A stretch of 64,000 bases of DNA from Heptranchias perlo (taxonomy: Eukaryota). The notes under the pieces were generated by a model. The model saw only the letters and a list, made by a program, of their open reading frames with translations. It did not search any database and was not told the DNA's origin. Both the position numbers and the translations under genes were made by a program. The stretch lies in contig NC_090369.1 of the NCBI RefSeq assembly GCF_035084215.1, forward strand, positions 1,550,001 through 1,614,000. Direction: 5' to 3'. Positions 25,503 through 62,529 of the stretch are shown piece after piece (positions within the stretch are counted from its first letter, which is position 1; each line of letters starts with the position of its first letter).

Positions 25503-25932
25503 CGTAGGAACAGGAGGAGGCCATTCAGCCCCTCGTGCCTGTTCCGCCATTCAACTAGATCATGGTTGACCCGCCTTGGTTCCGTAACCCTAAATACCCA
25601 ACAAAAATCGATCAATCTCAGTTTTGAAATTTTCAATTGACCCCCAGCCTCAACAGCTTTTTGGGGGATTCCCACTCCCCTTTGTGTGACGAAGTGCTTC
25701 CAGGCATCACCCCTGAACGGCCTGGCTCTAATTTTAAGGTTATGCCCCCCTTGTTCTGGACTCCCCCCACCAGAGGAAATAGCTTCTCTCTCTCTCTACC
25801 CTATTGAATCCTATAATCATCTTAAACACCTCAATCAGATCACCCCTTAAACTTCTACACTCGAGGGAATACAAGCCTAGTCTACGCAACCTGTCCTCGT
25901 AATTTAACCCTTTTAGCCCCGGTATCATTCTG
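25503..25932 (-). mobile_element. CR1 LINE 3' fragment
   Basis: Encodes MIPGLKGLNYEDRLRRLGLYSLE.R.LRGDLIEVFK; inverted copy of the 17955-18390 family. Confidence 0.85.
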
Positions 25933-26004
25933 GAGAGAGGAGACTCTAACGGAGGGACGACAAAAAGCAGATGTCACATGTTGACATGTCTTTGCCCTTT
26001 CCAG

Positions 26005-26257
26005 GTTGACTTCCTAAACCCCAACTCCTATGTAAACATCATCATCGGCGTCTCCACCTTCCTGTCCTTCTACGGATACCTGCTCTTCTACAAGGCGACA
26101 AAGAACTCGCTGCAAGGCTACGGGCTCCAGGAGAAGTTCATCTGCATCATCGTGGTTCTGGTGCTGTTTGGACTGCAGAGCGGAATCCTAGAGACCATGA
26201 GCGCGCTCGGAGCCATCCCCTGCTTCCCGCCGTTCTCCGTCGACATGCGTTCTCAGA
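26005..26257 (+). CDS. OSTalpha/SLC51A-like exon 6
   Basis: Boundaries ttccag|GTT..CAG A|gtaagt. Encodes VDFLNPNSYVNIIIGVSTFLSFYG...KFICIIVVLVLFGLQSGIL...IPCFPPFS. Confidence 0.92.
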
Positions 26258-26499
26258 GTAAGTCAGCGGTCGCTTTGGCGTTCACAGGAAACCCAGGTGA
26301 GGCGTGCCAAGCTTCCTCACCCAACCTGGCCCCATAGAACGGGGCACTACCTTGGTTGGAAAGAGAAGGTGGCAGAAGATGAGGTGTCATTAAGCTTGAA
26401 AGTCTCTAGATTGCAGGAGAAGGGGAAGAACGAGGGAGGTAAGAAATGTTTCGTGGTTGGAAGCTCCAGGCCGAAGATGGATCACATGTAAAAACTCTA

Positions 26500-36117: not shown

Positions 36118-36370
36118 GCGGCCCCGAGGGAGCGCTGCCCCGTCGGAGGGGCGGCCCCGAGGGAGCGCGGCCCCGAGGGAGCGCTGCCCCGTCGGAGGGG
36201 CGGCCCCGAGGGAGCGCTGCCCCGTCGGAGGGGCGGCCCCGAGGGAGCGCTGCCCCGTCGGAGGGCGGCCCCGAGGGAGCGCTGCCCCGTCGGAGGGGCG
36301 GCCCCGAGGGAGCGCTGCCCCGTCGGAGGGGCGGCCCCGAGGGAGCGCTGCCCCGTCGGAGGGGCGGCCC
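36118..36370. repeat. About 33-bp GC-rich minisatellite (GCCCCGAGGGAGCGCTGCCCCGTCGGAGGGGCG)
   Basis: Visible, about 8 copies; resembles an internal SINE segment. Confidence 0.92.
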
Positions 36371-36526
36371 CCGCCCTGTGTACTGTACCGAGAGTGTGGG
36401 CCTGGATTGTCTGTTCAAACAGACAATTTGTGTGCAGTGAGCAATAGGCTCACCTCCATTTTAAGCACAGAAATGATCGGCAGTTCCCCTGACAGGTTTA
36501 CTTCAATTTGAAGAGAATATTTAGTC

Positions 36527-41971: not shown

Positions 41972-42419
41972 CTGTTAAAACGCAGAGCGACAACGTTAGT
42001 GAGTCTCGGGCAAGAATCACGAATCCCCGCCCCACTCCCACCCAATGCTGGCATGGCGCCCACTTGAACCGCGACCTCGCTGATTCCTGACGTTCACGCA
42101 CGCCACGCGAGAGTGGCTGCCCCCCCCCCCCCTCCGCCCCCAACATCAAGGCAATGCTCGACCAATTACGACGCCAAGGAGCCCCAGCGAAACGGAGGTC
42201 ACTAGGGTCAGTAAACGGCTCACGGCGTTGCCCAGAATCCATCGATGAATGCAAGATGGCGGCCGGAGCGGAGACACTTCAGGAGCCAACTCCACAGCGC
42301 CACCTGCTGGCCGGAACCTGCAACTACACCGTGACTGTTGACATAGCAATTTGCAATGCTGACAGGAAAACGGGACCAACAAAATCCAGATAGCAGGAAG
42401 CATGGTTTTTGTTTCAAAA

Positions 42420-44613: not shown

Positions 44614-44739
44614 GCCGAGCCTCCAGCGTCATCGGACCTGCGGGAGAGAGGCACAGATCGGTCAGCGCTGCCGCACTCTCCCAACATCCTGCGTCCGCTT
44701 TCCATTTTACCAAACTCGCTAGATGTGGTGTGACAACCG

Positions 44740-45295
44740 GTGCTGAGGGAGCGCCGCGCCGTCGGAGGGTCGGTACTGAGGGAGCGCCGCGCCGTCGGAG
44801 GGTCGGTACTGAGGGAGCGCCGCGCCGTCGGAGGGTCGGTACTGAGGGAGCGCCGCGCCGTCGGAGGGTCGGTACTGAGGGAGCGCCGCGCCGTCGGAGG
44901 GTCGGTACTGAGGGAGCGCCGCGCCGTCGGAGGGTCGGTACTGAGGGAGCGCCGCGCCGTCGGAGGGTCGGTACTGAGGGAGCGCCGCGCCGTCGGAGGG
45001 TCGGTACTGAGGGAGCGCCGCGCCGTCGGAGGGTCGGTACTGAGGGAGTGCTGCACTGTCGGAGGGTCGGTACTGAGGGAGCGCCGCGCCGTCGGAGGGT
45101 CGGTACTGAGGGAGCGCCGCGCCGTCGGAGGGTCGGTACTGAGGGAGCGCCGCGCCGTCGGAGGGTCGGTACTGAGGGAGCGCCGCGCAGTCGGAGGGTC
45201 GGTACTGAGGGAGCGCCGCGCCGTCGGAGGGTCGGTACTGAGGGAGCGCCGCGCCGTCCGAGGGTCGGTACCGAGGGAGCGCCGCACTGTCGGAG
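44740..45295. repeat. 33-bp minisatellite (ACTGAGGGAGCGCCGCGCCGTCGGAGGGTCGGT), about 17 copies
   Basis: Visible; runs directly into a SINE body. Confidence 0.97.
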
Positions 45296-45772
45296 GTGCC
45301 GTCTTTCCGCTGAGACGTTAAACCGAGGCCCCGTCTGCCCCTCTCAGGTGGATGTAAAAGATCCCACGGCCATTACTGGAAGAAGAGCAGGGGGAGTTCT
45401 CCCCGGGGTCCTGGGGCCAATATTTATCCCTCAACCAACATCACTAAAAAACAGATGATCTGCTCATTTACCCCATTACTGTTTGTGGGATCTTGCTGTG
45501 CGCAGATTGGCTGCCACATTACAACAGTGACCACACTTCGAAAGTACCTCATTGGCCGTGGAGGGCTTTGGGACGTCCTGAGGTGGCGAAAAGCCCTGTT
45601 GAAGTGCGCTCACTGTTGTAATGTGGGGAACGCGGCAGACAATCTGCGCACAGCAAGATCCCACAAACAGCAATGTGATAAATGAGCAGATCATCTGTTT
45701 TTTAGTGATGGTTGAGGGATAAATATTGGCCCCAGGACCCCGGGGAGAACTCCCCCTGCTCTTCTTCCAATA
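45296..45772. mobile_element. Inverted pair of Deu-SINE fragments (45296-45600 +, 45610-45772 -)
   Basis: Match 43748-44045 and its reverse complement. Confidence 0.8.
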
Positions 45773-46383: not shown

Positions 46384-46740
46384 CTCAACAAACGGCCGGC
46401 GTCGCGTCTCTTTCTTTCCCCCCCTCTCTCTCTCTCTCTCACTTCAGACTCGGCCCGATTCTCCGTCTCACCTCCGACATTATAACCGGTCGAAGGAAAA
46501 AGAAAAAAAAGACTCGAAAACAAGAAGGCAGGGAGGCTCGCTGCCGCGCATGCGCCCGCCGGAGCGTCGCGACGCAGGCGCAGTTGCTGGGTGCCCCCTG
46601 TGGTTGGGGGGGGGGGTGTTTTGACACGCATGCGCCGCTCACGGACCCGGTCTGTATTTGCTGGGCATGCGCCGCTCACGGACCCGGTCTGTATTTGCTG
46701 GGCATGCGCATCCCGCCCGCGCCCGCGCCCTTCCCCACCG
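46384..46740 (-). promoter_or_regulatory. PORCN: PORCN CpG-island promoter and probable non-coding first exon (donor after 46384), with NRF1-type motifs
   Basis: GAG|gtaaaa donor on the minus strand. GCGCATGCGC at 46546, with related motifs at 46626, 46663 and 46700. Confidence 0.65.
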
Positions 46741-51242: not shown

Positions 51243-51550
51243 ATGGAAGGCTCTGGGTCGGCTGTGGTGGGCGAGGCCCACCCCTACTGGCCGCGGGAGC
51301 TCAGGCTCCCCGGGTACCACAGCAACGACAGGCCCATGTGGAGTATCCTGGCCTTTCTCTTCTCCGTGTCCGGGGCGCTGCTGGCCGGCACCTGGCTGCT
51401 GACGGGCCGGGTTCGGGGGCTGGGCGCCGGCCGCAGGCTCGCCGTCTGCTGGTTCGCCGTCTGCGCCTTCATCCACGGGGTGATCGAGGGCTGGTTCAGC
51501 CTGTACTACCGGCAGATCCCCGGGGGACCAGGCCTTCCTCTCCCAGCTGT
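51243..51550 (+). CDS. EBP: EBP (sterol delta8-delta7 isomerase) coding exon 1, with an apparent +1 G at 51522-51526
   Basis: Encodes [10 protein letters not shown]...[23 protein letters not shown][fs]DQAFLSQL; donor T|gtgagt. Confidence 0.95.
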
Positions 51551-51555
51551 GTGAG

Positions 51556-52030
51556 TGGGGGGGGGGTAGCAAGGGGGGGGCGCCACTGGGGGTAGCAAGG
51601 GGGGCGGGGCGGCCACTGGGGGTAGCAAGGTGGGGGGCCACTGGGGGTAGCAAGGGGGGGGGCCACTGGGGGTAGCAAGGGGGGGGGCCACTGGGGGTAG
51701 CAAGGGGGGGGGAACACTGGGGGTAGCAAGGGGGGGGGGCCACTGGGGGTAGCAAGGGGGGGGGGCCACTGGGGGTAGCAAGGGGGGGGGGGCACTGGGG
51801 GTAGCAAGGGGGGGGGGCCGCTGGGGGTAGCAAGGGGGGGGGCCGCTGGGGGTAGCAAGGGGGGGGGCCGCTGGGGGTAGCAAGGGGGGGGGCCGCTGGG
51901 GGATCAGAGGGGGGGTGGGAAGGGGGCGGCAGAAGTGGGGGTGGGAAGGGGGCAACAGGGGTGGCAGAAGTGGGGGTGGGAAGGGGGCAACAGGGGTGGC
52001 AGAAGTGGGGGTAACAGGGGTTGTGGGGTA
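51556..52030. repeat. G-rich minisatellite of about 27 bp (CCACTGGGGGTAGCAAGGGGGGGGG) and adjacent G-rich repeats
   Basis: Visible. Confidence 0.92.
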
Positions 52031-52410
52031 GCACTGGGGGTCAGAAGGGGGTTGGGGCAGAGAGGAGGCAACTGGGGGTCGGAGGGGGAGAGAAGGTGGG
52101 GAATATTGAGGCTTGAGGGGGACTGTGGGGTTGGATGAGAGGAGACAACTGCGGGGGGAGGCCTGGGGTGAAAATAGGTGGTAACGTGAGGTGGGAATCT
52201 GGGGTGGCAGTAGATTGGGGGGGGGGGGGGGGGTGGGGGAGTTTGGAGTGCTTGGGATGTAGGGGAATACAGGGATTGGGGGGCGATCTGGGTGGAGGGA
52301 GCTTCATTTTGCCGCGTTGGGTTGGCGTGCTGTTGTGAGACGAGCAGTATAACTGCGTCCTGGGTATTTTGAAGTCTGGGTTCAGTTATTCTCCCGTTCT
52401 GTTTCTGCAG

Positions 52411-52447
52411 GGAAGGAGTACGCCAAGGGAGACAGTCGCTATGTCAC
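52411..52447 (+). CDS. EBP: EBP coding exon 2 (37 nt)
   Basis: Encodes (W)KEYAKGDSRYV; boundaries cag and gtgagt. Confidence 0.96.
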
Positions 52448-52739
52448 GTGAGTAACTCGAGCCCCATCGCGCGCCCTGCTTGCGGTGTGGCTCTCCCCGC
52501 AGACAGCAGGAGCAGAGTCTCGCTCTGTCGGCGGAACTGGTCAGTGCGCCGACCTGGTTCGCCGCTGTGCAAAATGGCGTCGAGTCACTGGATCGGCTGC
52601 ATCCAATTCAGTGGGTACCTCCACTCACTGTACAGAATCTGGGATCGAGCCGCCCCCTAATAACGTTCTCTCGGGAAAAGGAGGGGGAGCTGCCCACTCT
52701 GGTGGGAGACTCCTCTTCAAGTCTTGTTTTCCATCCCCC

Positions 52740-53080
52740 TCCCTATCTCTGTAACCTCCTCCAGCCCCTACAACCCTCCCAGATCTCTGCGCTCCTCCAA
52801 TTCCGGCCTCTTGTCCATCCCCCGATTTCCATCGCTCCGCCATTGGAGGCCGTGCCTTCAGCCGCCTCAGCCCTAAGCTCTGGAATTCCCTCCCTAAACC
52901 TCTCCGCTCGCTCTCCTTTTTAAGACACTCCTTAAAACCGACCACTTTGACCAAGCTTTTGGTCGCCTGTCCGCATATCTCCTGATGTGGCTCAGTGTCA
53001 GATTTTTTTTGTCTGATTTACACTCCTGTGAAGTGCCTTGGGGATGTTTCACTATGTTAAAGGTGCTGTATAAATGCAGG
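52740..53080 (+). mobile_element. L2-like LINE 3' end
   Basis: Same family as 26640-26960. Confidence 0.7.
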
Positions 53081-53223
53081 TTGTGGTGTAAGGGGTGAAC
53101 GTGGACCTGGGTGGGCTTCCAGGGCCCCCCCCCCCAAGGACCAGGAGGAGGTGGGGGAAGATTTGGTAATAGTGCCCCAAACCGCTCTTAGTGATTTTTC
53201 TCTCGCACTCTCTCTCTCTGCAG

Positions 53224-53354
53224 TGCCGACAACTTCACCGTGTGCATGGAGACCATCACTGCCTGGACCTGGGGCCCACTGAGCGCCTGGACTGTCGTGG
53301 CCTTCCTGCAGAATAAGCCGTACCGTTTTGTCCTGCAACTCATCGTCTCCCTCG
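53224..53354 (+). CDS. EBP: EBP coding exon 3 (131 nt)
   Basis: Encodes [20 protein letters not shown]...[10 protein letters not shown]. Confidence 0.96.
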
Positions 53355-53480
53355 GTAAGGGCCGGAGGTTTCAGTCAGCACCGGGGTTGATGTTTGCCGC
53401 TCTGACCCTGGACCCGCCTCGGGGAGGAATCTGCAATCTTTCCCATCCGGCTCCAAAGTTACTGCAGGAATGGCAGTCGC

Positions 53481-53938
53481 AGGGAGTGTTTGATGGGACA
53501 GTGTAGAGGGAGCTTTACTCTGTATCTAACCCGTGCTGTACCTGCCCCGGGAGTGTTTGATGGGACAGTGTAGAGGGAGCTTTACTCTGTATCTAACCCT
53601 GTACCTGCCCTGGGAGTGTTTGATGGGACAGTGTCGAGGGAGCTTTACTCTGTATCTAACCCTGTACCTGCCCTGGGAGTGTTTGATGGGACAGTGTCGA
53701 GGGAGCTTTACTCTGTATCTAACACTGTACCTGCCCTGGGAGTGTTTGATGGGACAGTGTCGAGGGAGCTTTACTCTGTATCTAACCCTGTACCTGCCCT
53801 GGGAGTGTTTGATGGGACAGTGTAGAGGGAGCTTTACTCTGTATCTAACCCTGTACCTGCCCTGGGAGTGTTTGATGGGACAGTGTAGAGGGAGCTTTAC
53901 TCTATCTAACCTGTGCTGTACTTGCCCTGGGCTGTGTT
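53481..53938 (+). repeat. 63-bp minisatellite array, about 7 copies, in the last EBP intron
   Basis: Same family as 1-2472. Confidence 0.97.
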
Positions 53939-53961
53939 TAACCATTGTCCTTGCTCTGCAG

Positions 53962-54191
53962 GCCAGCTGTATGGCGATGTGCTCTACTTTTACACTGAAT
54001 ACCGGGACGGTTTCAGCCACAGCGAGCTGGGACACCCCGTCTACTTCTGGTTCTACTTCATCTTCATGAACTCGCTCTGGATCGTCATCCCGGCCGCCCT
54101 GATCCTGGACGCCTGGGCCAACCTCAGCGGGGCGCAGCGAGCAGCCGATCGAGGGGCTCCCTGCCCCAGCGGCAAGTCCAAGACCACGTGA
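53962..54191 (+). CDS. EBP: EBP terminal exon
   Basis: Encodes [13 protein letters not shown]...[20 protein letters not shown] and ends KSKTT*, a KxKxx ER-retrieval motif. AATAAA signals at 55608, 55718 and 55752. Confidence 0.96.
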
Positions 54192-56137
54192 GAGGAGGAC
54201 GGGGCTGGGCCTGCCTCGTCTTCCCTCCTCTTGCAGCCCTGGCGGTATAACGGGCCCCTCGATACCTTGACCAATGGCCATGGTCTGGGCTTGGGCCTTT
54301 GACCCTTGGTTGCCCAACGGAGCCTGTCTTAAGCAAGAAGATGGCTCTCCAGTCACACTTTTGAGGTTAACAACACTGACTCGTTGGGGTGTACTGCGCC
54401 CAGTCTCTCATCGATGCTACCATGGTCAGTGCTCCTCTGAACTCTCCTACGTCTGATCGGCCAGACGTCTGACACACATAAAAATCCATCACTATTGGCA
54501 CCACCGATTCAAACTAACTAACCCACAAAGCTTGCCAAGCTCACGTTACCCATAACTGTTGGGGCATTGACCTGGAGGCTTACTGGAGCCAAGCGGAATG
54601 AATGCAGCCTCCCAGGAGGAGTCTGTTCAGCCTGTTCTGCCATTCAGTTAGATCATGGCTCCATTTGCCCATTGTTGGGTCTACCCCCAAACTCCGATAC
54701 GGGCCGGTCGCTGACGGTGCCTTGTAGTGCTGCAGGCCTGCCTGGCTCTGAACTCTCCTCTCGTGTTCCTGCTAAGCTCCATCTCTCGTCCTACCCTCCT
54801 CGTCCTCCCCTTGCTGTGTGGAGATTAAGGACCCCCCCCCCTTACGTTGTCTCCTACACTCAGTCTTTCTCAGGATCTCCAACACATGGAGCTCTTCTCC
54901 TTCCTCCTACAATCCATATCCCAAGCTTGGCGTCACCTAACCACTACAATGTACCTGTACCCCAGGGTGGCTGCTGCCAGTGAACCTCTGCCCCAGTGGG
55001 ATGCTGGAGGGTGCATGGTGCCTGTGCCCCAGTGGGGTACTGGTAGTATTAGGAAATGAGGGACGGCCAGTGCTGGTGTAGCCGTACCCCATCAAGAGTC
55101 TGAACCTTATTCAGGAGGGATGTAGTACGTAAATCAGTGTCCCCACATTGTAACGTGCAGCTTGAAGGGTACAGTGGGGGTGTGGTGTTTGAATCCTCAT
55201 GTCACTCGCTGTCTGGAATCGGATATTTTTAATGGCCTCTGAAGCTCTGCTGGGAGAATGGGACTAACTGGATTGCTCTTACAAAGAGCTGGCAGGGGTG
55301 TGATGGGCTGAATTCTCTTAATAGAGAATTATTAGCTGTCACTGGGACTGAGATATGTGTAATAATAAAGCTAATTGTTGCTAGACTTGATGTTGGGCTA
55401 TTTGCACAATGTGTAGCAGTGGGAGAACCCACCGTCAGCAGTCAAGCTTTGTATGTGCAGAACCCTCTTGCTTCGGCTAAAGTCTGTTGTAAAACCCAGG
55501 GGACCAATCACCGCATTACAACTCAGATCAGTAAGCCAATGGTATGTGTACTGTATGGAGAACACTATTCAAAACTTTAGTTAGTTTGTTGATGACTGAA
55601 GTGCTGTAATAAAGTTCTCCTAAATTACCATACCACTGCGTGCTGAATCTTTTTATGAGATCTTACAGTTCTTCTGTGCTGTAACCATTCTATGATTTTG
55701 ATATTTTAATTTTATTAAATAAAGGTCTTTGTACTGAATGTATCTAATGTTAATAAATTATACATGCTGACCACAAAAAAACCTCTTGTGCACTGTGCAT
55801 GTGATGACTTGATGGTTAAGGGAGTGTCTCTAAATTCATACATGATTTAATGGGCACACTGACATCTCCTGAATTAAGGGAACTGCTGTAAATGCCCGCT
55901 ATTGTTGCACAACATCCCTCCCACAAACTTCAAGGGGGAGGGTTGATCTAATATTCCATGGTCTCTTGTAGCTAATTTCTGTGGTGAGATTGTCGACTCT
56001 CTCTCGCAGCTGCTCTGTCTGGTTTCTGGGCATGTTAACAATGGTTTACCCACATTTATAAACAGGAAAGCTGTAACTGCAGCAATTTTTAAATAGCAAA
56101 GTGCTGTTTGGTGATATACTCCACAGAGGTGCTGACT

Positions 56138-57387
56138 GGTCCTCCCACCAGCAGGGGGCACTGCCACCACCTGGTGTTTGGTCCTCCCACCAGCAGGGGG
56201 CACTGCCACCACCTGGTGTTCGGTCCTCCCACCAGCAGGGGGCACTGCAACCACCTGGTGTTCGGTCCTCCCACCAGCAGGGGTCGCTGCCACCGCCATG
56301 TGTTCAGTCCTCCCACCGGCAGGGGGCACTGCCACCGCCTGTTGCTCGGTCCTCCCACCAGCAGGGGGCACTGCTACCACCTGGTGTTCAATCCTCCCAC
56401 CAGCAGGGGTCGCGGCCACCGCCTGTTGCTCGGTCCTCTCACCAGCAGGGGGCACTGCTACCACCTGGTGTTCAATCCTCCCACCAGCAGGGGGCACTGT
56501 CACCACTTGGTGTTCGGTCCTCCCACCAGCAGGGGTCGCTGCCACTGCCATGTGTTCAGTCCTCCCACCAGCAGGGGGCACTGCCACCGCCTGTTGCTCG
56601 GTCCTCCCACCAGCAGGGGGCACTGCTACCACCTGGTGTTCAATCCTCCCACCAGCAGGGGTCGCGGCCACCGCCTGTTGCTCGGTCCTCTCACCAGCAG
56701 GGGGCACTGCTACCACCTGGTGTTCAATCCTCCCACCAGCAGGGGGCACTGCCACCACCTGGTGTTCGGTCCTCCCACCAGCAGGGGGCACTGCCACGAC
56801 CTGGTGTTTGGTCCTCCCACCAGCAGGGGGCACTGCCGCCACCTGGTGTTCGGTCCTCCCAACAGCAGGTGGCACTGCCACGACCTGGTGTTCGGTCCTC
56901 CCACCAGCAGGGGACACTGCCACCATCTGGTGTTCGGTCCTCCCACCAGCAGGGGTCGCTGTCCCCGCCTGGTGTTCGGACCTCCCACCAGCAGGGGGCA
57001 CCGCCACCACCTGTTGTTCGGTCCTCCCACCAGCAGGGGGCACCGCCACCACCTGTTGTTTGGTCCTCCCAGCAGCAGGGGGCACCGCCACCACCTGGAG
57101 TTCGGTCCTCCCACCAGCAGGGGGCACCGCCACCACCTGGAGTTCGGTCCTCCCACCAGCAGGGGGCACCGCCACCACCTGGAGTTCGGTCCTCCCACCA
57201 CCTGGAGTTCGGTCCTCCCACCAGCAGGGGGCACCGCCACCACCTGGAGTTCGGTCCTCCCACCACCTGGAGTTCGGTCCTCCCACCAGCAGGGGGCACC
57301 GCCACCAACTGGAGTTCGGTCCTCCCACCAGCAGGGGGCACCGCCACCACCTGGAGTTCGGTCCTCCCACCAGCAGGGGGCACCGCC
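56138..57387 (+). repeat. 42-bp tandem array, about 30 units, most carrying a CTCF consensus (CCACCAGCAGGGGGCAC)
   Basis: Unit GGTCCTCCCACCAGCAGGGGGCACTGCCACCACCTGGTGTTC. Confidence 0.95.
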
Positions 57388-57475
57388 CCCGCCCGGAGCC
57401 GCTGTCTCCCCGTCTCCGCCCCGGCCCCCAGACTGTCTGCTTCGCTGGCTGCGTCTGGCTGTGAGTCGGGTCGAC

Positions 57476-57505
57476 ATGGCTGGGCTGCCGCGGCGTATCG
57501 TTAAG
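57476..57505 (+). CDS. UBE2N: UBE2N/Ubc13-like coding exon 1 (MAGLPRRIVK)
   Basis: Strong Kozak context GACATGG; 9 of 10 residues match recalled UBE2N MAGLPRRIIK; AAG|gtaacg donor after codon 10; CpG-rich context. Later exons are not in the window. Confidence 0.85.
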
Positions 57506-57956
57506 GTAACGGGGCGGGGGTGGAGAGAGAGAGGGAGGGAGGAGACCGCGGCCTCGGGCCTGGGACTCGAGTGGAGGGGGAGAGGCTGCTCACCCGGGGG
57601 GTAGGGCGGGAGGATCGACCCCCTCTTCCAAACCTGGGCCCTGCAGCTCCCAAAGCCTCGGGCTGGGTTTACACTCCAGCCCGGGTAGGAGTTCCCAGCA
57701 CCGGACACATGAGCTGGGTTCCCCCCCCCCCCCATTAATGAAATATTCAGTGTAAATACAGCCCTGGATTTAATCCCAGACAATTCCTGTTTATAAACTC
57801 TGTTTATAATTAAATGCATTCATTAGAAAGTTGTTTTCTTTAATTAGGACACTTTCCCCTCCAATATCTTTTCTCTTTAATCCGTCCCTGCCCCGACCCC
57901 GGATTCCAGGGGGCACTCATTCACCACCCGGATGCCCATCGTGTGTCGGCTGGGAC

Positions 57957-59076
57957 TGTTGGGGTGAACGCGAGCCCAGCACCCCATCTATTGGGGGTGA
58001 ACGCGAGCCCGACATCCCATCTATTGGGGAAACGCGAGCCCGGCATCCCATCTATTGGGGGTGAACGCGAGCCCGACATCCCATCTATTGGGGAAACGCG
58101 AGCCCGGCATCCCATCTATTGGGGAAACGCGAGCCCAGTATCCCATCTGTTGGGGGTGAACGCGAGCCCGACATCCCATCTATTGGGGGTGAACGCGAGC
58201 CCGACATCCCATCTATTGGGGAAACGCGAGCCCGACATCCCATCTATTGGGAAACGCGAGCCCAGTATCCCATCTGTTGGGGGTGAACGCGAGCCCGACA
58301 TCCCATCTATTGGGGGTGAACGCGAGCCCGACATCCCATCTATTGGGGAAACGCGAGCCCGACATCCCATCTATTGGGGAAACGCGAGCCCGACATCCCA
58401 TCTATTGGGGAAACGCGAGCCCGACATCCCATCTATTGGGGAAACGCGAGCCCGGCATCCCATCTATTGGGGGTGAACGCGAGCCCAACATCTCATCTAT
58501 TGGGGGTGAACGCGAGCCCGGCACCCCATCTATTGGGGAAACGCGAGCCCGACATCCCATCTATTGGGGAAACACGAGTCCAGTATCCCATCTGTTGGGG
58601 GTGAACGCGAGCCTGGCATCCCATCTGTTGGGGAAACGCGAGCCCGACATCCCATCTGTTGGGGAAACGCGAGCCCGACATCCCATCTGTTGGGGAAACG
58701 CGAGCCCAGTATCCCATCTGTTGGGGGTGAACGCGAGCCCGGCACCCCATCTGATGGGGGGAAACGCGAGCCCGGCATCCCATCTGTTGGGGAAACGCGA
58801 GCCCGACATCCCATCTATTGGGGAAACGCGAGTCCAGTATCCCATCTGTTGGGGAAACGCGAGCCCAACATCCCATCTATTAGGGAAACGCGAGTCCAGT
58901 ATCCCATCTGTTGGGGGGTGAAAGCGAGCCCGACATCCCATCTGTTGGGGAAACGCGAGCCCAGTATCTCATCTGTTGGGGAAACGCGAGCCCAACATCC
59001 CATCTGTTGGGGGTGAACGCGAGCCCGACATCCCATCTGTTGGGGGAAACGCGAGCCCAACATCCCACCTGTTGGG
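57957..59076. repeat. 31-33-bp minisatellite (GGGGAAACGCGAGCCCGACATCCCATCTATT), about 35 copies
   Basis: Visible. Confidence 0.97.
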
Positions 59077-59397
59077 GAGGAGGGGTCAGACGTGTTGGGG
59101 TCCCCATATCCCACGCACACACTCGTATTCTAACAGGGGGTCCTTGGGTAGTGAGAGTGGTCAGTTTTTCCACCTCACATGCCCAGGGGCACTGAGGCCA
59201 AATGCAAACCCCCACTGCCCATCATCACTGCCCAGGGATCAGCTCAGAACGTTGTGTGGAGACACCGACACGGTCACCATGCCTCAGACTTGTTTGGGTA
59301 ACTGGTCGATAAGAAGTTTTCTTGGGTTTATAGACCTGCACGTTGTGATCCATAATCATGAGATTATAATCACAAATAATATCGTCACTACTGACCC

Positions 59398-62329
59398 GGG
59401 AAGGGAGAGCGGGAGGGGGAGAGGCGGATAGAGAGTGGGAAGAGGTGGATGGAGAGCGGGAGGAGGTTGGACGGAGAGCGGGGAGGAGGTGGAGGGAGAG
59501 CGGGGAGGAGGTTGGACGGAGAGCGGGGAGGAGGTGGAGGGAGAGCGGGGAGGAGGTGGAGGGAGAGCGGGGAGGAGGTGGACGGAGAGCGGGGAGGAGG
59601 TGGAGGGAGAGCGGGAGGAGGTGGACGGAGAGCGGGGAGGAGGTGGAGGGAGAGCGGGGAGGAGGTGGAGGGAGAGCGGGAGGAGGTGGAGGGAGAGCGG
59701 GGAGGAGGTGGAGGAGAGCGGGGAGGAGGTGGAGGGAGAGCGGGGAGGAGGTGGAGGGAGAGCGGGGAGGAGGTGGAGGGAGAGTGGGAGGAGGTTGGAC
59801 GGAGAGCGGGGAGGAGGTGGACGGAGAGCGGGGAGGAGGTGGACGGAGAGCGGGAGGAGGTTGGACGGAGAGCGGGGAGGAGGTGGAGGGAGAGTGGGAG
59901 GAGGTTGGACGGAGAGCGGGGAGGAGGTGGAGGGAGAGCGGGGAGGAGGTGGAGGGAGAGCGGGGAGGAGGTGGAGGGAGAGCGGGGAGGAGGTGGAGGG
60001 AGAGCGGGGAGGAGGTGGAGGGAGAGCGGGGAGGAGGTGGAGGGAGAGCGGGGAGGAGGTGGACGGAGAGCGGGAGGAGGTTGGACGGAGAGCGGGGAGG
60101 AGGTGGAGGGAGAGCGGGGAGGAGGTGGAGGGGAGAGCGGGGAGGAGGTGGAGGGAGAGCGGGGAGGAGGTGGAGGAGAGCGGGGAGGAGGTGGAGGGAG
60201 AGCGGGGAGGAGGTGGAGGGAGAGCGGGAGGAGGTGGACGGAGAGCGGGGAGGAGGTGGAGGGAGAGCGGGGAGGAGTTGGAGGTAGAGCGGGAGGAGGT
60301 GGACGGAGAGCGGGAGGAGGTGGACGGAGAGCGGGAGGAGGTGGAGGGAGAGCGGGAGGAGGTTGGACGGAGAGCGGGGGAGGAGGTGGAGGGAGAGCGG
60401 GGAGGAGGTGGACGGGGAGCGGGGAGGAGGTGGAGGGAGAGCGGGGAGGAGGTGGACGGGGAGCGGGAGGAGGTGGACGGAGAGCGGGGAGGAGGTGGAG
60501 GGAGAGCTGGGAGGAGGTTGGACGGAGAGCGGGGAGGAGGTGGACGGAGAGCGGGGAGGAGGTGGACGGAGAGCGGGGAGGAGGTTGGACGGAGAGCGGG
60601 GAGGAGGTGGAGGGAGAGCGGGGAGGAGGTGGAGGGAGAGCGGGGAGGAGGTGGACGGAGAGCGGGGAGGAGGTTGGACGGAGAGCGGGGAGGAGGTGGA
60701 CGGAGAGCGGGGAGGAGGTGGAGGGAGAGCGGGGAGGAGGTTGGACGGGAGAGCGGGGAGGAGGTGGAGGGAGAGCGGGGAGGAGGTGGAGGGAGAGCGG
60801 GGAGGAGGTTGGACGGAGAGCGGGGAGGAGGTGGACGGGAGAGCGGGGAGGAGGTTGGACGGAGAGCGGGGGAGGAGGTGGAGGGAGAGCGGGGAGGAGG
60901 TGGAGGGAGAGCGGGGAGGAGGTGGAGGGAGAGCGGGGAGGAGGTTGGATGGAGAGCGGGGAGGAGGCGGAGGGAGAGCGGGGAGGAGGTGGACGGAGAG
61001 CGGGGAGGAGGTGGAGGGAGAGCGGGGAGGAGGTGGAGGGAGAGCGGGGAGGAGGTGGACGGAGAGCGGGGAGGAGGTTGGACGGAGAGCGGGGAGGAGG
61101 TGGAGGGAGAGCGGGGAGGAGGTGGAGGGAGAGCGGGGAGGAGGTGGACGGAGAGCGGGGAGGAGGTGGAGGGAGAGCGGGGAGGAGGTGGAGGGAGAGC
61201 GGGAGGAGGTGGACGGAGAGCGGGGAGGAGGTGGACGGGAGAGCGGGGAGGAGGTGGAGGCGAGAGCGGGAGGAGGTGGAGGGAGAGCGGGAGGAGGTGG
61301 AGGGAGAGCGGGAGGAGGTGGAGGGAGAGCGGGAGGAGGTGGACGGAGGCGGGAGGAGGTGGAGGGAGAGCGGGGAGGAGGCGGAGGGAGAGCGGGGAGG
61401 AGGTGGACGGAGAGCGGGGAGGAGGTGGACGGAGAGCGGGGAGGGAGGTGGAGGGAGAGCGGGGAGGAGGTGGAGCGGAGAGCGGGGAGGAGGTGGAGGA
61501 GAGCGGGGAGGAGGTGGAGGGAGAGCGGGGAGGAGGTGGAGGGAGAGCGGGGAGGAGGTGGAGGGAGAGCGGGGAGGAGGTGGAGGAGAGCGGGGAGGAG
61601 GTGGACGGGAGAGCGGGGAGGAGGTGGACGGAGAGCGGGAGGAGGTTGGACGGGAGAGCGGGAGGAGGTGGACGGGAGAGCGGGGAGGAGGTGGAGGAGA
61701 GCGGGGAGGAGGTTGGACGGAGAGCGGGGAGGAGGTGGACGGAGAGCGGGGAGGAGGTGGACGGAGAGCGGGGAGGAGGTTGGACGGGAGAGCGGGGAGG
61801 AGGTGGAGGGAGAGCGGGGAGGAGGTGGAGGGAGAGCGGGGAGGAGGTGGACGGAGAGCGGGAGGAGGTGGAGGGAGAGCGGGGAGGAGGTGGAGGAGAG
61901 CGGGGAGGAGGTGGAGGGAGAGCGGGAGGAGGTGGAGGGAGAGCGGGGAGGAGGTTGGACGGAGAGCGGGGAGGAGGTGGAGGAGAGCGGGGAGGAGGCT
62001 GGAGGAGAGCGGGGAGGAGGTGGAGGGAGAGCGGGGAGGAGGTGAGGAGAGCGGGAGGAGGGGAGGGAGAGCGGGGAGGAGGCGGACGGAGAGCGGGGAG
62101 GAGGCGGAGGAGAGCGGGGAGGAGGCGGACGGAGAGCGGGGAGGAGGCGGAGGGAGAGCGGGGAGGAGGCGGACGGGAGAGCGGGGAGGAGGCGGACGGA
62201 GAGCGGGGAGGAGGCGGACGGAGAGCGGGGAGGAGGCGGACGGAGAGCGGGGAGGAGGTGGAGGGAGAGCGGGGAGGAGGTGGAGGGAGAGCGGGGAGGA
62301 GGTGGAGGAGAGCGGGGAGCGAGGTGGAA
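59398..62329. repeat. Purine-rich minisatellite of about 22 bp (GGAGAGCGGGGAGGAGGTGGAG), 2.9 kb, ending at a gap
   Basis: Visible; source of the spurious ORFs longer than 1000 aa. Confidence 0.97.
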
Positions 62330-62529
62330 NNNNNNNNNNNNNNNNNNNNNNNNNNNNNNNNNNNNNNNNNNNNNNNNNNNNNNNNNNNNNNNNNNNNNNN
62401 NNNNNNNNNNNNNNNNNNNNNNNNNNNNNNNNNNNNNNNNNNNNNNNNNNNNNNNNNNNNNNNNNNNNNNNNNNNNNNNNNNNNNNNNNNNNNNNNNNNN
62501 NNNNNNNNNNNNNNNNNNNNNNNNNNNNN
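62330..62529. other. Assembly gap (200 N)
   Basis: Run of N. Confidence 1.

Follow-up and report, generated by a model that had tools for sequence, protein, structure and literature searches.

A 42-bp Minisatellite with a CTCF Core Motif in 29 of 31 Units Adjoins a UBE2N-Type First Exon in the Shark Heptranchias perlo

Just upstream of a UBE2N-type first coding exon of the shark Heptranchias perlo is a run of short repeat units, most of which carry a match to the motif of CTCF. Such an array could be a selected long-range chromatin anchor, or it could be an ordinary promoter site that became caught up in tandem repetition, and this is the question that we address here. The window, i.e., the whole stretch of DNA analyzed, is 64,000 nucleotides long (NC_090369.1, positions 1,550,001 to 1,614,000), and all coordinates below are positions within it.

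TRF reported the array as one row (56138-57387, period 42, 29.7 copies). Splitting the sequence into units gave a 42-bp minisatellite of 31 units on the plus strand, at 56138..57401 (1.26 kb), so the original prediction of a 42-bp unit repeated about 30 times was confirmed. There are 28 full 42-bp units, two 23-bp units (at 57188 and 57253), and a terminal unit at 57360 whose 3' half diverges into promoter sequence. The TRF end is 89 bp from the ATG at 57476, in agreement with the claim that the last unit merges into the promoter about 90 bp before the ATG. Three features bear on the history of the array:

56264..56767, plus strand, a 6-unit (252-bp) block that was duplicated once (units 4 to 9 versus units 10 to 15)
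57146..57275, plus strand, a 65-bp block (42 + 23 bp) that is present twice, found by unit splitting
57360..57401, plus strand, the terminal unit, with the last CTCF core (57370-57383) and then a GC box; a candidate for the ancestral promoter site

The units lie head to tail and include variants, as in a minisatellite or VNTR, in which units measure ∼10 to 100 bp; their mean pairwise difference is 12%. Among the 28 full units are 22 distinct sequences, which have nested shared variants and zero single-base indels. Corresponding units of the two copies of the 252-bp block differ at 1, 1, 0, 0, 0, and 2 positions; the recurrence on which a 252-bp higher-order repeat had been proposed is therefore real, but it reflects a single duplication event. 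Each 23-bp unit lacks 19 bp, the core included, because of a deletion between two short direct repeats within the unit; the core-less unit was tolerated and was then duplicated as part of the 65-bp block. These internal duplications and deletions show that the array was unstable in the past.

The plus strand of the array is stop-free in all frames, and a 461-codon stop-free frame (56093-57475), which has no ATG, runs into the UBE2N-like ATG and is in frame with it; there is a weak acceptor-like AG near 56126. We rejected a coding repeat: no ATG lies in frame, the unit frame is broken by the 19-bp deletions, and stop-free frames are common among the arrays of the window, 8 of 19 having one strand free of stops. 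There were no Rfam matches to structured RNAs across the window. A hairpin as the driver of the repeat was also rejected: the unit is an imperfect palindrome, but it folded no better than shuffled sequences in five of five stretches (z, −0.1 to −1.6). So was an origin from a transposon, since no further copy of the unit or of the left flank was found in the window beyond chance matches of 12 to 18 bp. Two 33-bp arrays (36118-36371 and 44738-45296) adjoin and resemble the 5' end of a dispersed element, copies of which are at 43.7, 45.3, 45.7, 63.3, and 63.8 kb; within the window, the CTCF array does not adjoin this element.

The CTCF core consensus pattern was found on the plus strand of 29 of the 31 units, exactly in 20 and with one mismatch in 9. 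Elsewhere in the window there was one exact match, at 42297 on the minus strand, with a chance expectation of 0.12 per window. For scoring we used a CTCF count matrix (column sums, 908 to 913) that was written out for this analysis rather than taken from JASPAR, and all bit scores given here rest on it. By this matrix all 29 core-bearing units scored 16 to 22 bits, each with p < 2e-6, and the consensus site scored 21.6 of 26.1 bits (p = 2e-8, or 1e-7 at 65% GC). Shuffled units reached the score of the consensus unit in 0 of 20,000 trials. This test was set for one unit, not for 29 copies, as the right comparison, and judged so, the predicted CTCF match of one unit is far above chance. None of the 19 other array rows had a unit above 10.4 bits by this matrix. 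Thus, the claim that most units contain the CTCF core was borne out by pattern and by matrix scan. The CTCF-related sites discussed below are the following:

56187..56205, plus strand, example 19-bp CTCF site in unit 2 (unit positions 8 to 26; 21.6 bits)
56204..56222, minus strand, example inverted CTCF-like site (unit positions 25 to 43; 16.0 bits)
42295..42313, minus strand, a single very strong CTCF site (23.6 bits) in an intron of the PORCN-like gene, divergent to the array and, apart from the array, the only strong one in the window
57351..57360, plus strand, upstream-motif-like 10-mer, 9 bp ahead of the last core; 8 of its 10 positions match the motif given in PMC12885311

The weaker CTCF-like sequence that had been noted on the opposite strand is present, though uneven among units: the inverted site, at unit positions 25 to 43, reached p < 1e-5 at 9 positions and p < 1e-4 at 21. 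With the first site held fixed, a second CTCF-like site this good arose in 0.055% of shuffles (P = 5.5e-4). Consequently, the sites are co-oriented in the sense that one orientation dominates, but the array is not pure, because inverted weaker sites occur in many units.

CTCF fingers 9 to 11 bind an upstream motif that is separated from the core by a linker of 7 to 10 bp, according to PMC12885311 and PMC10484683. The 10-mer before the last core resembles this motif and, at a 9-bp linker, the other units have the same arrangement, matching 4 to 8 of 10 positions; over the 29 cores, 6 match at 8/10, 12 at 7/10, and 11 at ≤6/10. The site at 42295 has a 7/10 match, likewise with a 9-bp linker. The shuffle P values were 0.04 for the consensus unit and 0.005 for the right-end units; these, like the match counts, were scored against the consensus printed in PMC12885311, not against a matrix. 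The 10-mer is mismatched at one contacted position. When the terminal unit is compared with its neighbor over the upstream-motif window, all four differences are towards the motif in the repeat (from 4 to 8 of 10), a comparison made post hoc. By our own sum from the parts described in PMC10484683, upstream motif, linker, core, and the triplets of fingers 1 and 2 span ∼40 bp, near the 42-bp period. One unit, consisting of the upstream-like 10-mer, a 9-bp linker, a 15-bp core, and a 3' flank, would thus correspond to about one 11-finger footprint. The inverted site at 56204..56222 shares 2 bp with the plus site and also overlaps the 10-mer, so the 10-mer and the inverted site cannot both be counted.

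The 42-bp period had also been credited with placing the sites on one face of the helix. This is not distinctive: periods that close to a multiple of 10.5 (within 1 bp) are found in 8 of the 19 other array rows and account for 12 of the 44 possible ones from 20 to 63; four of the 8 rows belong to one 63-bp family, which forms four separate arrays in the window.

The array lies between two genes, with the following features around it:

51243..54192, plus strand, EBP gene, upstream of the array; three blocks are 96 to 99% identical to the Heptranchias perlo protein
55364..55757, plus strand, four candidate polyadenylation hexamers (AATAAA/ATTAAA), the last ∼380 bp before the array
57476..57505, plus strand, UBE2N-type first coding exon, 10 codons and then a GT donor
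62330-62529, unstranded, an assembly gap downstream of the UBE2N-type exon

In its last exon, EBP shares 99% identity with the Heptranchias perlo protein and 84% with that of Heterodontus, which points to a hexanchiform shark. EBP orthologues are on record for Heterodontus, Carcharodon, Cetorhinus, Pristis, and Mobula. The array had been placed just downstream of the EBP polyadenylation signals, and the four hexamers, which start at 55364 to 55752, agree with that. The UBE2N label is based on a match at 9 of 10 residues and on 15 of 15 PDB hits being UBE2N, at an E value of about 0.9. Later UBE2N exons were not found in the window, including 57506-62529 before the gap, and a Pfam search of 450 of the 463 stop-to-stop frames, including all frames downstream of the ATG, found no ubiquitin-conjugating domain. 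Hence, of the UBE2N-like start codon that was proposed, the exon 1 match stands, but the domain was not found in the frames scanned. The remainder of the gene may be inside the gap at 62330.

The same Pfam search found OST-alpha (25.9 kb, plus strand), MBOAT (40.4 kb, minus strand), EBP, and WD40 (62.9 kb). The OST-alpha match is an SLC51A-like exon at 25903-26334 on the plus strand. We take the MBOAT gene to be PORCN and the WD40 gene to be WDR13. The WDR13-like match is an internal exon after the gap; its first exon was not seen, and the gap may truncate genes. This neighborhood presumably corresponds to that of human Xp11. The correspondence gives no link to X inactivation, because the shark X is reported not to be homologous to the human X (bioRxiv 2022.10.17.512540).

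Tandem repeats make up 44% of the window, in 21 arrays. Some are near other promoters: one is 396 bp before the EBP ATG, and others are in the first introns of EBP and the UBE2N-like gene. The EBP intron 1 array (51562-51915) has a 25-bp unit and weak CTCF-like matches (10 to 12 bits) at 6 positions. In the CpG-rich PORCN-like promoter, a 37-bp unit is repeated 2.2 times (46628-46709) and carries a GCATGCGC element, which we assume to be NRF1-like; this duplication is possibly an early stage of the kind of promoter-motif duplication that would have given rise to the CTCF array. On the genome scale, simple tandem repeats are described as abundant on small shark chromosomes and at chromosome ends (bioRxiv 2022.10.17.512540).

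Where did the CTCF array come from? Units 23 to 30 differ from the terminal unit at 6 to 7 positions, and the other units do so at 8 to 12. That the nearest units are the most similar to the terminal unit suggests that the right (promoter) end is the ancestral site, its ancestral status being deduced from unit similarity. No solo copy of the 42-bp unit exists elsewhere within the window. On the sense strand, the last core ends 92 bp short of the ATG and is followed by the GC box. In bioRxiv 095802, promoter CTCF sites are given as ∼60 bp upstream of the start site, with 90% in the direct orientation. A promoter-proximal site would lie within ∼100 bp upstream of the start site; the terminal core has the direct orientation, and its 92 bp are measured to the ATG rather than to a start site. 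Position and orientation of the terminal unit, similarity of its neighbors, and absence of a solo copy in the window all uphold the original prediction that a promoter CTCF site was amplified, and we regard this origin as highly probable.

The array most likely arose by capture of an ordinary promoter site in a local tendency to form tandem repeats. Mutational capture of such a site is enough to explain it, given that the window is 44% tandem repeat and has arrays beside other promoters; that no other array row exceeded 10.4 bits fits capture being rare. Assuming a density of one site per 20 to 100 kb, the probability that a 42-bp unit holds a whole CTCF site is 2e-4 to 1e-3. By this reckoning, several such cases would be expected, with no selection needed, in a genome that has many thousands of arrays.

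We then asked what the variants say about selection. Counts were made on 28 of the 31 units, leaving out the terminal unit and the two 23-bp units. There are 30 distinct substitution alleles, 7 of them at the 14 core positions and 23 at the remaining 28 (P = 0.135); counted by cells, core versus noncore gave P = 0.053. When alleles were weighted by matrix loss and compared with shuffles of position, the plus site was spared (P = 0.014 to 0.034, and 0.05 to 0.19 within the site only), and the inverted site was damaged more than the shuffle average (P = 0.90 to 0.97). The four most informative columns have no allele (P = 0.035), as is the case for 2 of the 42 slid registers. Alleles that had spread to several units touch the core in 2 of 17 cases (P = 0.04) and singleton alleles in 5 of 13 (4.3 expected); the Fisher test between the two classes gave 0.10. 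The low-variation stretch comprises unit positions 2 to 20, starting outside the motif, and in a register-slide control on the motif cost profile, the true register ranked 10th of 42. Variant clumping was lowest in P for the CTCF array (0.063) among the 17 array rows with variants. Note that these motif-constraint tests overlap and use nonindependent events. Whether substitutions are spread evenly over motif and nonmotif positions, a point raised by the original prediction, thus gets a divided answer: the spread leans to mild constraint (P = 0.01 to 0.05), yet the register slide does not single out the motif. The allele sparing leans towards selection on many copies.

A long-range super-anchor role for the array is possible. 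As a selected insulator, its ∼29 forward sites would be an unusually strong cohesin barrier. Paired with the reverse site at 42295, they would enclose the PORCN-like and EBP promoters in a divergent boundary and send loops downstream. All 29 cores have kept p < 2e-6, the allele tests point in the same direction, the array and the site at 42295 point away from each other, insulation grows with site number in the experiments and models of PMC11828424, PMC12885311, and PMC7087399 as presented there, and PMC12885311 links the upstream motif to insulator activity. However, the quiet stretch is not the motif, neither the core-versus-noncore count nor the singleton-versus-spread comparison is significant, two units have no core, and arrays are everywhere in the window; moreover, the site-dosage experiments described in PMC11828424 used 180-bp spacing, whereas the array has 42 bp. 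We therefore consider this explanation unlikely. Its fullest form would be a unit tuned to a complete 11-finger footprint, packed 29 times, and selected as a length-variable CTCF dosage element, with minisatellite expansion of promoter factor sites being a general way of building boundaries between packed housekeeping genes on small shark chromosomes; this combination is quite unlikely. Hints in its favor are the four post hoc differences towards the upstream motif, the allele-free top columns of the motif, and the smaller promoter-motif duplication at 46628.

The opposite extreme is an inert passenger: a methylated, nucleosomal repeat in which only the terminal site, in the promoter CpG island, is bound. 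The observed-to-expected CpG ratio is 0.34 in the array versus 0.66 to 0.85 at promoters, so the array may be methylated and closed. However, 23 of the 29 cores contain no CpG to methylate, there are the weak signs of motif sparing, and many human simple tandem repeats are reported to be strongly enriched for CTCF (PMC5007689), all of which makes inertness improbable in our judgment. CTCF binding to the array is plausible, both because of the CpG-free cores and because elasmobranch boundaries use the motif: elasmobranch TAD boundaries are described as having the same CTCF motif and orientation code (PMC10115646). That multiple units are bound seems to us somewhat probable.

In the explanation that we prefer, the promoter-proximal CTCF site of a UBE2N-like housekeeping gene would have been duplicated and then expanded ∼30-fold by slippage and unequal exchange, as for minisatellites throughout this GC-rich, repeat-dense region. 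Several CTCF molecules could probably occupy neighboring units end to end, since a unit corresponds to roughly one 11-finger footprint and CpG is absent from most cores. Their effect would be local: a 1.26-kb CTCF-loaded, nucleosome-poor barrier that would fix the upstream edge of the promoter and dampen both antisense initiation upstream of it and read-through from EBP; additional stalling of cohesin would be a by-product. Promoter CTCF sites are reported to set the edge of the nucleosome-free region (bioRxiv 095802) and to prevent antisense initiation upstream with no need for loops (bioRxiv 2021.10.30.465508). The array may limit read-through because it is ∼380 bp past the last candidate EBP polyadenylation hexamer. 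Copy number would probably owe most to mutation, selection on it being weak at best. We give the whole explanation, capture plus local cluster, an even chance; a measurable local effect beyond that of one site is a tentative, somewhat doubtful part of it.

The array could also be a clustered-site platform, similar to 2xCTS sites, on which CTCF and its paralogue CTCFL tune this promoter in the male germ line; alternatively, other factors could use it. Motifs that we take to be ZIC-like are in 21 of 31 units and E-boxes in 18 of 31, but both are substrings of the CTCF-like sequences. The array does have at least two closely spaced motifs (plus sites every 42 bp, and the inverted site at p < 1e-4 at 21 positions), and the second site is better than chance (P = 5.5e-4), but the inverted site has been damaged beyond the shuffle average and overlaps the plus site by 2 bp. 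As for precedents, close, sometimes palindromic CTCF motifs are said to mark promoters cobound by CTCF and BORIS (PMC4562119), the two proteins cobind simple VNTRs (PMC5007689), and testis-biased CTCFL is reported in sharks (PMC7471279). We hold this reading to be very unlikely. An assembly artefact is hardly credible: there are homopolymer frame shifts at ∼51524 (EBP exon 1) and ∼63035 (WD40 exon), probably assembly errors, and three N gaps in the window, but the 22 distinct sequences among 28 full units, their nested shared variants, and the absence of single-base indels argue against it, and no gap is within 4.9 kb of the array, although the copy number could still be off.

How does the array compare with known systems? 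The original prediction likened it to DXZ4 and FIRRE, and as with these and ICCE, there is a CTCF motif in each tandem unit (PMC6125249, PMC3491370). The analogy fails on scale and setting: in these accounts the units are 3 to 5 kb, extend over tens to hundreds of kilobases, and bind CTCF on the hypomethylated inactive X, whereas the array, at 42 bp × 31, is of short-unit scale and extends over 1.26 kb. That class is also marked by superloops of megabase length, and its CTCF motif is what is conserved between species. It is closer to the human VNTRs and TAR1 that are bound by CTCF/BORIS, which likewise have short units with CTCF motifs and staggered cluster sites; 171 human repeats, mostly simple VNTRs, are listed as coenriched for CTCF and BORIS (PMC5007689). 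For those, binding is demonstrated, whereas the shark array is a candidate defined by its sequence and abuts a housekeeping promoter; the likeness is one of kind, not of motif quality or density, as Table S2 of PMC5007689 lists neither unit sequences nor periods. Alphaherpesvirus reiterations (CTRS, CTUS1, and pseudorabies virus [PRV] repeats) are also short repeats with a CTCF motif near promoters and are proposed insulators that vary in copy number between strains, as presented in PMC3192842; however, they are viral, whereas the shark array has the full-length cellular consensus on a vertebrate chromosome. Promoter-proximal CTCF sites (bioRxiv 095802, bioRxiv 2021.10.30.465508) resemble the terminal site in being upstream of a housekeeping gene and transcription-directed, but those described are single, and the shark array has 29 in a row. 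The 2xCTS sites of PMC4562119 have, like the array, two close inverted motifs at a GC-rich promoter, but in the array the second site is the weaker one, deteriorates from unit to unit, and shares 2 bp with the first. The array belongs with the CTCF-bearing short tandem repeats, not with the DXZ4/ICCE/FIRRE class.

CTCF-bearing short tandem repeats were already known, and this example is unusually dense, clean, and promoter adjacent. In the literature searched, outside of which most subscription papers fell, there was no earlier report of such an array in a shark, a lineage for which there are so far few chromatin data. If the array is occupied and polymorphic, it would be a natural test of whether CTCF sites 42 bp apart load together and of how, so closely spaced, they scale in barrier strength with their number. 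Shark minisatellites could likewise be screened across the genome, in a simple way, for factor sites that they have captured.
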